This document shows, in pieces, positions 16,478 through 28,656 of a DNA stretch of 64,000 bases. Source of the stretch: PVC group bacterium (lineage in GTDB: Bacteria; Omnitrophota; Gorgyraeia; B26-G9); NCBI GenBank assembly GCA_024231215.1, contig JAAEQR010000195.1, positions 78,755 to 142,754 on the forward strand. The letters are read 5' to 3'. The notes under the pieces were generated by a model. That model was not told the DNA's origin and ran no database searches. It saw nothing but the letters and a program-made list of their open reading frames with translations. The translations under genes and the position numbers were made by a program. The stretch's first letter is position 1. Every line of letters starts with the position of its first letter.

Positions 16478-17584
16478 ATGGATACCCTTGTGTGTAATCA
16501 TAAGCGACAAAGAGCAAAACTTGCGTTAGAAGATGGCAGAATATTTCCCGGATTTTCTTTTGGTGCTACGGGAACTGCTTTGGGAGAAGTTGTCTTTAAT
16601 ACCAGCTTAGCTGGATACCAGGAAATACTCACAGATCCTTCCTACAAAGGTCAGATGGTAACAATGACCTATCCTCTTATTGGTAATTATGGTGTAAATG
16701 AAGAAGATGTTGAATCACATAAACCTTTTGTTGAAGCATTTATTGTAAAAGAATGTAGTCGTATTGCCAGTAATTGGCGTTCTACGATGACCTTAGATGA
16801 ATATCTTAAAAAGAATAATATTATTGGTATCGAAGGGGTAGATACACGTGCGATTACCCGTCATGCAAGATTGCAGGGAGCAATGAAGGCGGTGCTTTCC
16901 ACCGAAGACTTAGATGATAAAAGTTTAGTTGCAAAAGCAAAAGCTTCAACTGGACTGGTGGGAGTGGATTTAGTCAAAGAAGTAACTTCTTCTGAAATCA
17001 AGCATTGGACAAAAGAAGGTAAATATAAAGTTGTTGTTTTAGATTGCGGAGTAAAACTGAATATTTTAAGAGAATTAGCAGGACTTGATTGCCAGGTGAT
17101 TGTTGTTCCGGCATCTACTACAGCAGAAGAGATCCTGGCTTTAAATCCTGACGGGCTTATGCTTTCTAATGGCCCGGGAGATCCAGCTGCTGTAACATAT
17201 GTTGTTGAGACGGTGAAACAATTAATCGGAAAACTGCCGATGTTCGGCATTTGTCTTGGCCATCAGATGTTGGGACAGGCTTTAGGCGGAAAAACATATA
17301 AACTTAAGTTTGGCCATCATGGGGGTAATCAGCCGGTAAAAGATCTTAAAACAGGCAAGATCGATATTAGTGTGCAGAATCATGGATTTTGCGTGGATAT
17401 CGATTCATTAAATAAAGATGATATCGAAATTACACATATTAATCTTAATGATCAGACTTTAGAGGGAATTCGGCATAAAAAACTGCCGATTATCTCAGTG
17501 CAGTTTCATCCGGAAGCTTGTCCTGGTCCGCATGATTCAAAATATTTATTTAAACAATTTATGGAAATGATAGAAAATGCCTAA
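16478..17584 (+). CDS. carA: carbamoyl-phosphate synthase small (glutaminase) subunit
   Basis: 368 aa. [35 protein letters not shown] aligns to the E. coli CarA N-terminus. GATase triad region GICLGHQ. Confidence 0.9.
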
Positions 17585-20500
17585 GAGTACAGACATTAAA
17601 AAAATATTAATTATCGGTTCTGGTCCGATTATCATCGGTCAGGCTTGTGAGTTTGATTATTCCGGAACTCAGGCGTGTAAAGCGCTTAGAGAGGAAGGAT
17701 ATGAAGTAGTCTTGGTGAATTCTAACCCGGCAACGATTATGACCGACCCGGAGACAGCTGATTCTATTTATATCGAACCGATTACTCCGGAAGTAGTGAT
17801 TAAGATTATCGAAAAAGAACGTCCGGATGCTATCCTGCCTACATTGGGAGGTCAGACAGGTTTAAATATAGCAATGAAAGTTGCCGAAAGCGGTGCTTTA
17901 GAAAAATATAATGTAAAGATGATCGGAGCAAACGCTGCAGCAATTAAAAAAGCCGAAGATAGAAAAGATTTTAAAGAAGCAATGCAGAATATAGAATTGG
18001 ATGTGCCCAAAAGTGCACTTGCGTATACCATGGAAGAGGCACTTGGGGCTTTAGATGATATTGGTTTGCCGATAATCATAAGGCCTAGTTTTACCATGGG
18101 TGGTACTGGCGGTGGAATTGCGCATACAAAGGAAGAATTTGAGCGTATTTGTGCTTTAGGTTTAAAAAGCAGTATGATCAACGAAGTGCTTGTAGAAGAA
18201 TCAATTCTCGGCTGGAAAGAATATGAATTAGAAGTAATGCGGGATACAAAAGACAATGTAGTAATTGTCTGCTCAATTGAGAACTTTGATCCCATGGGGA
18301 TTCATACCGGCGATTCGATCACTGTTGCTCCGGCGCAGACTTTGACAGATGTTGAGTATCAGAAAATGAGAAATGCCGCTTTAGCGATTATGCGGGAGAT
18401 TGGAGTTGAGACAGGTGGCTCTAATGTGCAGTTTGCCGTAAATCCAAAAGACGGAAGAATGGTTGTTATTGAAATGAATCCGCGGGTATCGCGCAGTTCA
18501 GCCTTAGCTAGTAAAGCAACCGGATTTCCGATTGCTAAATTCGCGGCAAAGCTTGCTGTAGGATATACGTTAGACGAAATACAAAATGATATTACAAAAG
18601 AAACTCCGGCTTCTTTTGAACCTACAATAGATTATTGTGTAGTGAAAATCCCGCGGTTTACATTCGAAAAGTTTCCGGAAGCAAAAGATGTTCTGGGTAT
18701 CTCCATGAAATCTGTAGGAGAAACCATGGCGATTGGCCGGACTTTTAAAGAAGCTTTGCAAAAAGGCCTGCGTGGTTTGGAAATAGGGCATACGGGATTT
18801 GATAATAAGCAGAAGTTTACTGATATCTCTGAGGAAAAAATGATGCATCGTTTAAAAGAACCAAATGCTTCTCGCATTTTTTATATGAAATACGCTTTGC
18901 AGAGAGGCATGAGTATCGAAGAGCTTTATGAGATAACAAAAGTCGATCCCTGGTTTATTAGTAATCTTAAAGAGATCGTTGAATTAGAAAAAGAGATTGT
19001 AAACCATAGTAGTAAGACTAAGGGTATGGGATTTGATATTGAAATTTTAGAACAGGCTAAGCAGTGGGGATTTAGTGATAAACAAATTGCCGATTTAATT
19101 CAAACTGAGGAATCGGCAGTGCGGCATTTCCGAAAGAAACAAGGGCTTGAAGCTACCTATAAATTGGTTGATACATGTGCCGCGGAATTCGAAGCATATA
19201 CGCCGTATTATTATTCTACTTATGAGACTGAGGATGAGGCTAGGTCTAGTGATAAGAAAAAGATTATGATTTTGGGCGGCGGTCCGAATCGGATTGGCCA
19301 AGGGATTGAATTTGATTATTGTTGCTGTCACGCGGCGTTTGCGCTGAAGGAATTAGGTTATGAAACAATAATGGTTAATTCAAATCCGGAAACAGTTTCT
19401 ACGGATTACGATACTTCAGATAAATTATATTTTGAGCCGCTTACTTTTGAAGATGTAATGAATATCGTTGATAAGGAAAAACCAGATGGAATTATTGTGC
19501 AGTTTGGCGGACAGACCCCGCTGAATCTCGCTAAACGGCTTTTGGATGCAGGGGCTCCGATTATCGGAACATCTGTAGAATCAATTGACCGGGCTGAAGA
19601 TAGGGATAAATTTTCAAAACTGGTTAAAAAATTAAGAATACATCAGCCGGCTAATGGTTCGGCAACAAATAAAGAAGAAGCATTGGAAATCGCTAGTGAA
19701 ATTGGGTATCCGGTTTTAGTGCGTCCATCATATGTGCTTGGCGGACGGTCGATGAAAATAGTCTATAACGATGATGATTTAAATGAGTTTATTAAAGAAG
19801 CAAAAGATACAAGCAAAGATAAACCGATTCTTATTGATAAATTCTTAGAAGACGCAGTAGAAGTTGATGTAGATGCAATATCGGATGGTGAGATGACAGT
19901 TATCGGCGGGATTATGGAACATATTGAAGAAGCCGGGGTGCATTCCGGTGATTCAGCGTGTGTGCTTCCCCCGCATACATTAAGCGATGATATTATTGAT
20001 AAAATCCGAAAGGATACTTTGGCAATGTCAAAAGAGCTAAAGGTAAAAGGGTTGCTTAATATTCAGTTTGCCGTAAAAAAAGATAAAGTATATGTCTTAG
20101 AAGTTAATCCCAGGGCTTCACGTACAGTGCCTTTTGTAAGTAAAGCTACCGGGGTTCCATTAGCTAAAATCGCGGCAAAGGTAATGTCCGGCAAGAAATT
20201 AACAGAGCTTGGATTTACCGATGAAATAAAAGTTGAACATTTTTCCGTAAAAGAATCAGTGCTTCCTTTTTCACGTTTCTCCGGCGTGGATGTTTTGTTA
20301 GGCCCGGAGATGAAATCTACCGGGGAAGTAATGGGAATTGATACTTCGTTTGGGCAGGCGTTTTATAAAGCTCAGATTGCTGCGGGTACTGTTTTGCCGA
20401 GGGAAGGAACAATTTTTATTAGTGTTAAGAATGATGATAAGCGGAATATCGTATTTATAGCTAAGAAACTATATGACATGGGCTATTCGATCATGGCGAC

Positions 20501-20804
20501 TAAAGGTACCGCGAAAGTTTTAAATTCGAATAATATTAAGACGAAAAAAATGAAAAAGATTGGTGAAGGTAATACGGATATTTTAGAAAATATTCGAAAC
20601 GGGAAGATTAATCTTATTATCAATACGCCTTCCGGAGAAAGAGGGCAATCGGATATGAAGCCAATGCGAAGCCTGGCAGTTATGCACGGAGTTCCGTGTA
20701 TAACGACTATTTCGGGAGCTCAGGCTGCGGTAAACGGGATTGAATCGATGCTTGAAGGAGAGATGTCAGTGACTTCGATCCAGGAATATATTAAACAGAT
20801 CTAA
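17577..20804 (+). CDS. carB: carbamoyl-phosphate synthase large subunit, copy 1
   Basis: 1075 aa. Two ATP-grasp halves and a C-terminal MGS-like allosteric domain. Its start overlaps the carA stop. Confidence 0.9.
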
Positions 20805-26955: not shown

Positions 26956-27054
26956 GACGTAGATGAGTTGGAGTCGGTTTCCAAGTTAGCAGCTTAGTGC
27001 TTTGTAGTAGTAATAACTAGTGTAGTAAACTTATTAAAGAAGAGAATAATAAAA

Positions 27055-28656
27055 ATGGCTAAATTTATTTTTGTAACAGGTGGAGTTGTTTCAAGTCTGG
27101 GCAAAGGTATTGCCGCTGCTTCGATTGGGAAATTGCTTGAGGCTCGCGGATTAACCGTTACGATTATAAAATGCGATCCTTACATTAATGTAGACCCGGG
27201 AACCATGAATCCATTTCAACATGGAGAGGTGTATGTTACCGATGATGGCGCGGAGACAGATCTGGATTTAGGGCACTATGAACGGTTTACAAAGGCAAAA
27301 CTGACAAAAGATAACAATATTACTACAGGTAAGATATATTACTCGGTTATTACTAAAGAACGCAGGGGAGATTATTTAGGAAAGACAGTTCAGATAATTC
27401 CACATATAACCGATGAAATAAAGCAGGGGATACGCCAGGTATCTTACGGAAAAAAAATTGATGTTGTGATCGTAGAAATTGGCGGGACAGTTGGTGATAT
27501 TGAAGGGCTGCCGTTTTTAGAGGCAATCCGCCAATTGAAATTAGAACTAGGGACAGGGTATGCTTTGAATGTTCATGTTACGCTGGTTCCTTATATAAAG
27601 TCTGCCGGAGAAATGAAAACAAAGCCGACTCAGCACAGTGTAGGGACATTAAGAGAAATCGGAATCATTCCTGATATTATACTTTGCCGGACGGAAAGAA
27701 CCTTATCTAAAGAAAATAAGGAAAAGATTGCGCTTTTTTGTAACGTGGATAAAGAGGCAGTTATTCCTGCGGTTGATGTTAAAAGCATTTATGAGGTACC
27801 GTTACTGCTGAGCAAGGAAAAGTTAGATGAACTGATCGTGAAGCGTTTGAATTTGCGTTGTGCAGAAAGAGATCTTTCCGGATGGCAAAACGCTGTGATA
27901 AAGCGTTTAAAGACATCGGCAACTGAAGTGTCGATTGCGGTAATAGGTAAATACATTACTTTGCAGGATGCGTATAAATCTATTTATGAGGCATTGGTTC
28001 ACGGTGCACTTGCGAATAACACAAAGCTCATATTGAAAAAAGTTGATTCCGAGGATATCGAAAAGAACGGGGCTCAGAAATATCTTAAAGGAGTAAAGGG
28101 AGTTTTAGTCCCGGGAGGATTCGGAGACCGCGGCATAGAAGGCAAGATAAAGGCAATTCAATATGCCCGGGAAAATAAAATACCATTTTTCGGAATTTGT
28201 TTAGGTATGCAGACAGCAGTGATTGAGTTTGCCCGTAATGTGTGCGGTTTGAAGAACGCCAATTCTACAGAGTTTAATAAAACTACAAAGCATTCGGTTG
28301 TTAGTCTTTTGGAAGAACAAAAAAAAGTTAAGACTAAAGGAGCCTCTATGCGTTTAGGTGCTTATGAATGTAAGCTGAAAAAGGGGACATCTGCGCATAA
28401 CGCGTATCGGCGTGAAAAAATTTTTGAAAGACATCGTCATCGTTATGAATTCAATAATGAGTATCGGGAAAGCTTATCCAAAAAAGGCATGGTTTTTTCC
28501 GGAGTTAATCCGCGGAGTAAGTTGATAGAGATTGTTGAACTAAAAAGCCATCCCTGGTTTGTGGCATGTCAATTCCATCCGGAATTTAAATCCAAGCCGG
28601 ATAGTGCGCATCCTTTATTCCGGGAATTTGTCAAGGCATCACTGAATAACGGATAG
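27055..28656 (+). CDS. pyrG: CTP synthase
   Basis: 533 aa. N-terminal synthetase domain ([14 protein letters not shown]) and C-terminal GATase domain (GICLGMQ). Confidence 0.9.

Follow-up and report, generated by a model that had tools for sequence, protein, structure and literature searches.

A DUF1846 gene within a glutamine-amidotransferase gene array of an Omnitrophota bacterium, a probable orthologue of the ammonia-dependent CTP synthase PyrJ

Here we describe a gene array in a 64,000-nucleotide stretch of contig JAAEQR010000195.1 (positions 78,755 to 142,754; assembly GCA_024231215.1) from a PVC group bacterium of the Omnitrophota, hereafter the window, and we focus on one gene of this array, a member of the family DUF1846 (UPF0371). 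Six consecutive open reading frames (ORFs) lie on the forward strand at exactly the coordinates given by a first-pass annotation made from the sequence alone, which had read them as six co-directional genes, carA-carB-carB-purF-UPF0371-pyrG, with tiny or overlapping gaps, and family calls with Pfam and NCBIfam, in which all six exceed curated cut-offs, agree with that reading throughout. The first gene, carA (16478-17584), encodes the small subunit of a glutamine-hydrolysing carbamoyl-phosphate synthetase (CPS; TIGR01368, 520 bits against a cut-off of 307, with CPSase_sm_chain and GATase domains), and overlaps by 8 nucleotides (nt) the large-subunit gene carB1 (17577-20804; NF003671, 1745 bits), which is followed by a second full-length large-subunit gene, carB2 (20819-24049; NF003671, 1535 bits). 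Next come purF, encoding glutamine phosphoribosyl pyrophosphate (PRPP) amidotransferase (24052-25428; TIGR01134, 524 bits against a cut-off of 350), the DUF1846 gene itself (25438-26955; PF08903, PF20921 and NF010184), which we read as a pyrJ orthologue encoding a predicted ammonia-dependent CTP synthase, and pyrG, an apparently intact gene for glutamine-hydrolysing CTP synthase (27055-28656; NF003792, 865 bits). A seventh gene, absent from the earlier list, completes the array on the same strand and encodes an RNA-binding regulator with GAF and ANTAR domains (28658-29377; PF01590 and PF03861).

The purF product begins with MCGIFG, and so has the Cys1 nucleophile, and also possesses the phosphoribosyltransferase (PRTase)/PRPP-binding motif VVVEDSIVRGTT and C-terminal Cys residues, while the pyrG product displays a P-loop, the nucleophile motif GICLGMQ and FHPEF. 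For carB2, whose public protein model is 1065 amino acids (aa) long and whose alignment with carB1 begins at residue 12, the ATG at 20852 is probably the true start, in preference to the GTG at 20819. The ATG of the DUF1846 gene is preceded by a GGAG Shine-Dalgarno sequence.

Intergenic gaps within the array measure -8, 14, 2, 9 and 99 nt, followed by 1 nt between pyrG and the GAF-ANTAR gene, such that five of these six gaps do not exceed 15 nt. The first strong intrinsic terminator on the 3' side (a 13-bp stem and T-run) is situated at 30501-30532 on the forward strand, and we consider that pyrJ is probably co-transcribed with carA-carB1-carB2-purF upstream, while pyrG and the GAF-ANTAR gene come next downstream. 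It could be argued that the six genes form no functional unit and merely reflect a compact, strand-biased genome, given that small gaps are frequent (the median gap in the window is 38 nt and 16 of 41 are of 15 nt or less), that promoter-like matches are no more common than in shuffled sequence, and that all but one of the ~43 likely genes in the window lie on the forward strand, so that the co-directionality of the array carries little weight. However, this is highly improbable in view of the reappearance of the orthologues as clusters, in other orders, on at least six other contigs from four phyla, and of the boundaries of the array, which has a 260-nt leader with conserved elements at its 5' end and no terminator-like site in any of its intergenic gaps. 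Consequently, the glutamine-amidotransferase supercluster proposed by the first-pass annotation is real, and it is conserved in the Omnitrophota, with the same gene set present on other contigs from this phylum.

The suggestion that the gene at 25438-26955 is DUF1846-like is borne out by matches above cut-off to both domain families and to the equivalog family. PF08903 scores 565 bits (E 7e-170) over residues 5-337 and PF20921 scores 193 bits (E 3e-57) over residues 342-503, each against a gathering cut-off of 27, while the NCBIfam equivalog NF010184 scores 780 bits against a cut-off of 631. These matches delimit an N domain (approximately residues 5-337, encoded at 25450-26448 on the forward strand) and a C domain (approximately residues 342-503, at 26461-26946 on the same strand). 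In the Protein Data Bank (PDB), the protein matches 7F00, which is SPD_0310 of Streptococcus pneumoniae (E 4e-160 over residues 6-499, ~50% identity), and 3BH1, which is DIP2346 of Corynebacterium diphtheriae (E 3e-158), and a sequence-profile search of the PDB for remote homologues returned none besides these two. The closest homologues overall (75-91% identity) are almost all from Candidatus Omnitrophota. We also observe that the protein is 72-74% identical to proteins from Syntrophales and Cloacimonadota (found among the loci that we number L005-L066) and only 66% identical to that of a further Omnitrophota locus (L069), a pattern suggestive either of horizontal exchange of the gene between anaerobic lineages or of a sequence under very strong constraint.

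An AlphaFold model built from a shallow alignment (35 sequences, 75-91% identity) reached a predicted local distance difference test score (pLDDT) of 56 and was discarded. The final AF2 model and the analysis of residue conservation are both based on 25 diverse sequences spanning 33-91% identity, and this model has a pLDDT of 93 and a predicted template-modelling score (pTM) of 0.89. A fold search of this kind had been proposed as a check by the first-pass annotation, and in Foldseek the confident model superposes on 3BH1 (template-modelling (TM) score 0.90, 52% identity) and 7F00 (TM 0.88, 50% identity), with no confident match besides these. There are 27 invariant columns in the 25-sequence alignment, 25 of which fall in the N domain (including E34, D42, H44, K57, K184, N222, D239, R255, S279-P280-T281, N286, E305 and R309) and two in the C domain (H471 and T492); the protein from the window, being part of the alignment, has all 27 by construction. 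As a family it is compact: there is a single architecture, and identities grade continuously. A glycine-rich segment at residues 177-187 (25966-25998, forward strand) had been likened to a phosphate-binding loop, and sequence and model together support this in part: the segment lies between a strand (172-176) and a helix (184-197), which is the usual position of a phosphate loop, its K184 is invariant and G179, S182 and G183 are kept in at least 90% of sequences, yet the motif PGPGSGKL departs from the Walker A consensus GxxxxGK[ST], and we therefore term it a deviant, Walker-A-like loop.

The first-pass annotation regarded the UPF0371 protein as uncharacterised. This has been overtaken by the description of SPD_0310 as PyrJ in 2024, although Pfam and NCBIfam retain the labels DUF and ‘hypothetical’. 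In S. pneumoniae, Dual Tn-seq found Spd_0310 to be synthetic-lethal with pyrG, a phenotype rescued specifically by cytidine, and the purified protein converts UTP to CTP in an ATP-dependent reaction with ammonia (NH4Cl) and not with glutamine, leading to its renaming (bioRxiv 10.1101/2024.09.24.614635). The same preprint describes the family as mostly from Firmicutes and Actinobacteria, and reports that ~31% of genomes with pyrJ have no pyrG, with Clostridioides difficile and C. diphtheriae among the species concerned (bioRxiv 10.1101/2024.09.24.614635). In C. difficile, the DUF1846 gene CDR20291_0828 is essential, and its knock-down by CRISPR interference results in a strong defect and elongated cells (PMC12157513). 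A literature search for later papers using the name PyrJ found none.

We conclude, with a probability of roughly 0.8, that the ORF at 25438-26955 is orthologous to the gene for PyrJ (SPD_0310), a homotetramer of two-domain subunits which, without a glutaminase domain, synthesises CTP from UTP with ATP and free ammonia as the other substrates. By analogy with the pneumococcal orthologue, from which we infer that the activity is the same, the protein is the glutamine-independent member of the cluster, and its position there is largely explained by this identity, since the characterised member of the family is a CTP synthase and a place beside pyrG makes sense for such an enzyme. The role in glutamine, nucleotide or one-carbon metabolism that had been proposed from its neighbours was therefore well placed in respect of nucleotides and misplaced in respect of glutamine, as PyrJ uses ammonia only. 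Under the mechanism that we envisage, the N domain, with its P-loop-like GPGSGK and nearly all of the family-invariant polar residues, would probably bind ATP and activate UTP at its C4 oxygen, in the manner of PyrG with its 4-phospho-UTP intermediate, with ammonia then attacking. The enzyme would supply CTP independently of the glutamine pool, beside the glutamine-dependent PyrG.

Recurrent linkage was the test on which the first-pass annotation had staked its functional proposal, and such linkage is found. We sampled pyrJ loci from species-representative genomes (80) and from metagenomes (80), with 163 loci entering the count, and located neighbours by tblastn with carA, carB1, carB2, purF, pyrG and the GAF-ANTAR gene of the window as queries. 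In 11 of the 163 loci, a carA, carB, purF (or purF-like) or pyrG gene is directly adjacent to pyrJ on the same strand, in at least six gene orders, and restricting the count to loci flanked by 3 kb or more on each side gives 7 of 75. The expectation is ~0.5% (five specific genes in a 2000-gene genome), giving a binomial P of ~1e-9 on the assumption, not fully satisfied, that loci are independent. Among Omnitrophota, the order of the window recurs in L001, and we find carB2-pyrJ-GAF/ANTAR in L002, pyrJ-pyrG in L003 and pyrG-pyrJ-carA-carB1 in L069. Elsewhere the arrangements are carA-carB1-pyrJ-pyrG-purF-like-carB2-purF in Chitinispirillum (L047), pyrJ-carB2 in Verrucomicrobiota (L065), carA-carB1-pyrJ (L067) and carB2-purF-like-pyrJ (L074) in Planctomycetales, and, on metagenome contigs, carB2-purF-like-pyrJ (L155), pyrJ-purF-like-carB2 (L093) and pyrJ-pyrG-purF-like (L114). 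Linked loci are consequently present in Omnitrophota, Planctomycetota, Verrucomicrobiota and Fibrobacterota.

The linkage is nonetheless lineage-restricted, with ~93% of sampled loci unlinked. In the remaining loci, from Smithella and other Syntrophales, Acidobacteriota, Cloacimonadota, Clostridia and Kiritimatiellia, no such genes were detected within 8-10 kb, and the recurrent neighbours are instead housekeeping genes, namely MiaB-like, GAF, NIL-ferredoxin, Der, PhaR, RNase III, hydrolase, MaoC and ABC exporter genes, with no heme or iron theme. Two other Omnitrophota contexts (L081 and L082) are also unlinked to pyr genes. One of these, L081 (CP070807.1, 9199-13990), contains a kdsB-pyrJ-kdsA-kdsD-kdsC-lptC operon. 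KdsB consumes CTP, and this operon therefore provides an independent functional link between pyrJ and CTP.

Several observations weigh against our assignment. The biochemical function derives from one preprint and from an orthologue of ~50% identity; the intact pyrG lies only 99 nt downstream, and PyrJ is therefore not needed to explain the supply of CTP; some of the unlinked majority of pyrJ loci belong to Omnitrophota themselves (L081 and L082); a peer-reviewed study describes SPD_0310 as a hemin-binding protein (PMC9238395); and the catalytic mechanism and domain roles set out above are inferred. The coexistence of an intact PyrG, together with the modest identity to the characterised enzyme and the presence of purine and histidine amidotransferases in related gene clusters (see below), could also be taken to indicate that the Omnitrophota protein works as a ligase or kinase which uses ATP and has a different nucleotide or nitrogen metabolite as its substrate, for instance in another pyrimidine amination or on a regulatory nucleotide, and that it has only ancestry in common with PyrJ. 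We regard this as unlikely, because the family is compact, with one architecture and continuous identities, because the residues invariant across 25 diverse sequences are all present in the window protein, because S. pneumoniae likewise has both pyrG and pyrJ (bioRxiv 10.1101/2024.09.24.614635), and because direct adjacency to pyrG recurs in L001, L003, L047, L069 and L114.

A different function has been put forward for SPD_0310, whose structure 7F00 was solved in 2022 as a homotetramer, together with a proposal of hemin binding (PMC9238395). If this extended to the window protein, it would be a cytoplasmic hemin-binding or shuttling protein in iron homeostasis, and its place in the operon would be incidental. 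The pneumococcal evidence consists of high-affinity hemin binding, dependence on the tetramer and a lower iron content in the knockout (PMC9238395). The residues implicated by docking and mutagenesis (M38, L39, E40, G88, R97 and R307) correspond to L39, L40, F41, G89, K98 and R309 in the window protein, and hence two of the six are conserved (G88 as G89, and R307 as R309, which is invariant), whereas E40 is replaced by F41 in a variable column. Moreover, the site was obtained by docking into the N-domain pocket that also holds the invariant polar residues and the P-loop, so hemin may merely occupy the nucleotide pocket. No heme- or iron-uptake genes recur as neighbours in the 163 loci, and the genetics and enzymology of the preprint account for the essentiality reported in species without pyrG, which hemin binding does not. 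We therefore consider the hemin function very unlikely to explain the family, and favour the CTP synthase.

Comparison with known proteins helps to define the limits of the PyrJ assignment. The window protein agrees with SPD_0310 in length and in its two Pfam domains, and pyrG is also present in both genomes; in contrast, the window gene, from an Omnitrophota genome, adjoins pyrG within a car/pur operon, whereas the locus numbers of the pneumococcal genes, spd_0310 and spd_0442, are far apart. DIP2346 is the best structural match (TM 0.90), but it is a structural-genomics entry from a species without pyrG according to the preprint, while the window has pyrG. PyrG (PF06418 and PF00117) has the same net reaction, from UTP, ATP and a nitrogen donor to CTP, and both enzymes have a glycine-rich loop ending in GK without the usual Ser/Thr after the Lys. 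PyrG is able to use ammonia too (bioRxiv 10.1101/2024.09.24.614635), whereas PyrJ lacks a glutaminase domain and does not accept glutamine; in Pfam searches, neither CTP_synth_N nor a class-I GATase domain was detected in the DUF1846 ORF. Comparison of the PyrJ domains with the N and C domains of PyrG by hhalign gave no significant similarity (E 0.07-0.35), and in the absence of profile similarity we regard the two enzymes as analogous and not homologous.

The C domain of PyrJ is said to have a cytidine-deaminase-like fold, and the idea of a ‘reverse deaminase’ has been put forward for it (bioRxiv 10.1101/2024.09.24.614635). In our comparison with cytidine deaminase (CDA) of Bacillus subtilis (1JTK), one 18-residue beta-hairpin of the C domain resembles GAALLTKDGKVYRGCNIE of the deaminase, with an hhalign E of 0.15, which is not significant. 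The zinc and catalytic motifs of the cytidine/deoxycytidylate deaminase superfamily are H/C-A-E and P-C-x-x-C. These motifs are not conserved in the C domain across the 25-sequence alignment, where H390 is variable and followed by A-A, and where there is no PCxxC, so residue conservation lends no support to the ‘reverse deaminase’ idea. The C domain is poorly conserved and lacks a conserved zinc-ligand motif, and we consider a nucleotide-binding, regulatory or oligomerisation module a likelier reading of it than an active site of this kind.

To place pyrJ in its wider context in the Omnitrophota, we read the neighbourhoods of four CarB2 orthologues (L168-L171) with precomputed Pfam labels. L168 has the order glutamate dehydrogenase (GDH)-GAF/ANTAR-Glu_synthase-domain protein-CarB2-GuaA-PurL-HisF-PurF, and L170 the order GlnA-GDH-GAF/ANTAR-Glu_synthase-domain protein-CarB2-GuaA-HisH-HisF-PurF-PyrJ. 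In L169, CarB2-PyrJ is preceded just upstream by GlnA, a Glu_synthase-domain protein and a gene resembling the ATP-pyrophosphatase of GMP synthase, and in L171 the order is GltB-GltD-PyrJ (on the opposite strand)-CarB2-CarA-CarB1-PyrG. The genes of these four contigs are orthologous to those of the window (tblastn, 65-82% identity) and PyrJ is present in three of the four contexts, which were reached via CarB2. PyrJ is therefore a regular member of a conserved Omnitrophota island for nitrogen assimilation and amide transfer. The window itself conforms to this pattern upstream of the array, with GltD at 378-1823 (with GltB probably lying immediately beyond the window edge), an NfnA-like and NADPH-glutamate-synthase-like pair at 8338-10609, isocitrate dehydrogenase at 11149-12351 and NADP-glutamate dehydrogenase (gdhA) at 12367-13767.

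CarB1 and CarB2, the two CPS large subunits of the array in the window, are 53% identical, and across loci they form two orthogroups with 64-88% identity within each and ~52% between them, CarB2 being seen in the window and in L002, L047, L065, L074, L093, L155 and L167-L171. In every locus examined (among them L001, L047, L067, L069 and L171), carA directly precedes a CarB1-type gene, whereas a CarB2-type gene is never directly preceded by carA; in the window and L001 it follows carA-carB1. The neighbours of CarB2 are instead PurF, a PurF-like protein, PyrJ, GuaA or a stand-alone Glu_synthase-domain protein. It is known that the large subunit of Escherichia coli CPS alone can make carbamoyl phosphate from ammonia, and CarB2 may be an ammonia-dependent CPS, or may have another partner. 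As a separate observation, the CarB1-type gene looks split in L067 (8250-9869) and L069 (8210-9829), where one ORF directly after carA holds only the N-terminal half (~540 aa).

A further protein clade with unusual features, large and well conserved, occurs in the related loci, though not in the window. The PurF-like genes of L047 (13171-14583), L093 (9546-11003), L114 (5282-6715), L074 (~5431-6579) and L155 (~6808-7956) encode proteins 29-31% identical to PurF of the window, and others are found in L164-L167. Their N-terminus reads MSG or MGG instead of MCG, so that the N-terminal nucleophile (Ntn) is missing, and they have no RYSTTGSS loop but keep the PRPP motif DDSIVRGTQ; their score of 192 bits falls below the TIGR01134 purF cut-off of 350. 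All 15 sampled members start with MGGF or MSGF, save one with a shorter called N-terminus, and they originate from Fibrobacterota, Desulfobacterales, Acidobacteriota, Latescibacterota and Omnitrophota, where they are annotated as amidophosphoribosyltransferase. The PurF-like gene stands beside CarB2 and/or PyrJ in several loci; among four further contexts, three are stand-alone, and in L167 the gene follows a CarB2-type carB with an upstream Glu_synthase-domain gene and no carA. An apparent CarB2-PurF-like fusion (a 1524-aa ORF in L074 and L155) proved to be an artefact, a long spurious ORF in another frame of high-GC DNA. A literature search on Cys-less PurF found nothing relevant.

A potential means of coordinating the island is suggested by its leaders. 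Ahead of the carA leader is a sigma-70-like promoter candidate (TTGACA-17-TAAATT with TG; 16250-16278, forward strand), which is a consensus match of the kind shown above to be no commoner than in shuffles, and TTGACA promoters also start the leaders of related operons in L067, L168, L169 and L170. At 16291-16335 on the same strand, a hairpin (GGAAC-AAAGGU-GUUC) lies over a weak terminator-like stem and U-run, a candidate attenuator or ANTAR target; the copy of this terminator in the window is weak (-12.8 kcal/mol, z -0.5), whereas the copy in L001 (669-710) is strong (-25 kcal/mol, z -5.6). A second leader element, with the mini-hairpin AGAAC-AAAGGC-GUUCU over a strong terminator (8237-8296, forward strand; -25.7 kcal/mol, z -4.5, with none of 200 shuffles folding as well), lies upstream of the nfnA/gltA-like-icd-gdhA operon. 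In L168 (~4140-4280) and L170 (~4075-4190), the leaders contain tandem GGC-AxxGxx-GCC hairpins overlapping terminators, the L169 leader contains tandem terminator-like hairpins, and in L067 a terminator lies just upstream of carA. The carA leader of the window also includes a perfect 9-bp inverted repeat, ATTATAATT-N5-AATTATAAT (16391-16413, no strand assigned), an operator or promoter candidate with one match in the window against 0.04 expected, and the 35-nt block in which it lies has conserved counterparts ahead of carA in L001 and ahead of carB2-pyrJ-GAF/ANTAR in L002. An Rfam scan of the window returned three tRNAs only and nothing in the carA leader, so a PyrR element or known riboswitch is absent there.

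ANTAR proteins bind hexaloops (with A1 and G4) that compete with terminators, the canonical target comprising two tandem hairpins of which the second overlaps the terminator (PMC3369931). The window resembles the known ANTAR systems EutV, NasR and AmiR (PMC3369931) in having an ANTAR-protein gene in the island and two nitrogen-operon leaders with A1/G4 hexaloop mini-hairpins over terminators, and differs from them in that a GAF domain takes the place of the receiver or NIT domain as sensor, and in that there is no canonical second hairpin: inspection of the leaders at 8237-8296 and 16291-16335 found one hairpin per terminator, and not a second hexaloop hairpin 5-12 nt upstream. Furthermore, the AAAGG motif of these leaders partly coincides with the A-tract and 5' arm of the terminator, and the hexaloop reading may therefore be over-interpreted. 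GAF-ANTAR orthologues (74-84% identity) are always found inside the island in other Omnitrophota, after pyrG in L001, after pyrJ in L002 and after GDH in L168 and L170. It is plausible from these sequence features that the GAF-ANTAR protein is an antiterminator controlling the island via its leaders, and we propose it as a candidate for this role.

Taken together, these features raise the possibility, tentative and on balance doubtful, that the island comprises two parallel nitrogen-transfer sets, one using glutamine and the other ammonia, both under a GAF-ANTAR antiterminator acting at terminator-containing leaders. The glutamine-using set would consist of CarA-CarB1, PurF and PyrG, and the ammonia-using set of PyrJ and the CarA-less CarB2 in the window, to which related lineages would add the Cys1-less PurF-like clade, which may fit such a set and is offered as a lead only, and the stand-alone Glu_synthase-domain protein. 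If this were true, anaerobes in ammonia-rich habitats could make CTP, carbamoyl phosphate and possibly phosphoribosylamine without drawing on the glutamine pool, and a duplication of this kind extending to CarB2 and the Cys-less PurF-like clade would change models of nitrogen flow into nucleotides in these organisms.

The function of PyrJ is itself already known, from recent work at preprint level, and what our analysis adds is modest: an Omnitrophota member of the family, its repeated operon linkage to pyrG and carAB in PVC bacteria and Fibrobacterota, and the conserved nitrogen-transfer island. The adjacency of pyrJ to pyrG, to carAB and to the CTP-consuming KdsB does however constitute independent comparative evidence for the claim of the preprint, in phyla that the preprint does not emphasise, and the distribution of PyrJ among uncultured anaerobes appears to be wide, with Omnitrophota, Syntrophales, Acidobacteriota, Planctomycetota and Fibrobacterota among the lineages that have it. 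As curated databases keep the DUF or ‘hypothetical’ label, annotation pipelines and first-pass readings alike will go on flagging the family as unknown.

Several further features of the window accompany the array. Between gdhA and the carA leader lies a pair of genes encoding an MBOAT protein (DltB-like, below the equivalog cut-off) and a GDSL hydrolase (13912-16217), with no apparent connection to nitrogen metabolism. Between the GAF-ANTAR gene and the 3' terminator is a 70-aa ORF (29538-29750) that consists almost wholly of KKKVA repeats, the underlying DNA being 11.6 copies of a 15-bp unit (29567-29740); its product is lysine-rich and histone-H1-like. HEAT-repeat proteins are encoded at 4648-5610 (reverse strand) and 41968-44844, and the three tRNA genes at 39462-39824. 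Downstream of the array, a glycogen, trehalose and maltodextrin cluster extends from 32191 to 57632 and includes GlgC, a trehalose-phosphatase fusion, GH65, two alpha-amylase-family genes, GH57 and GH77.

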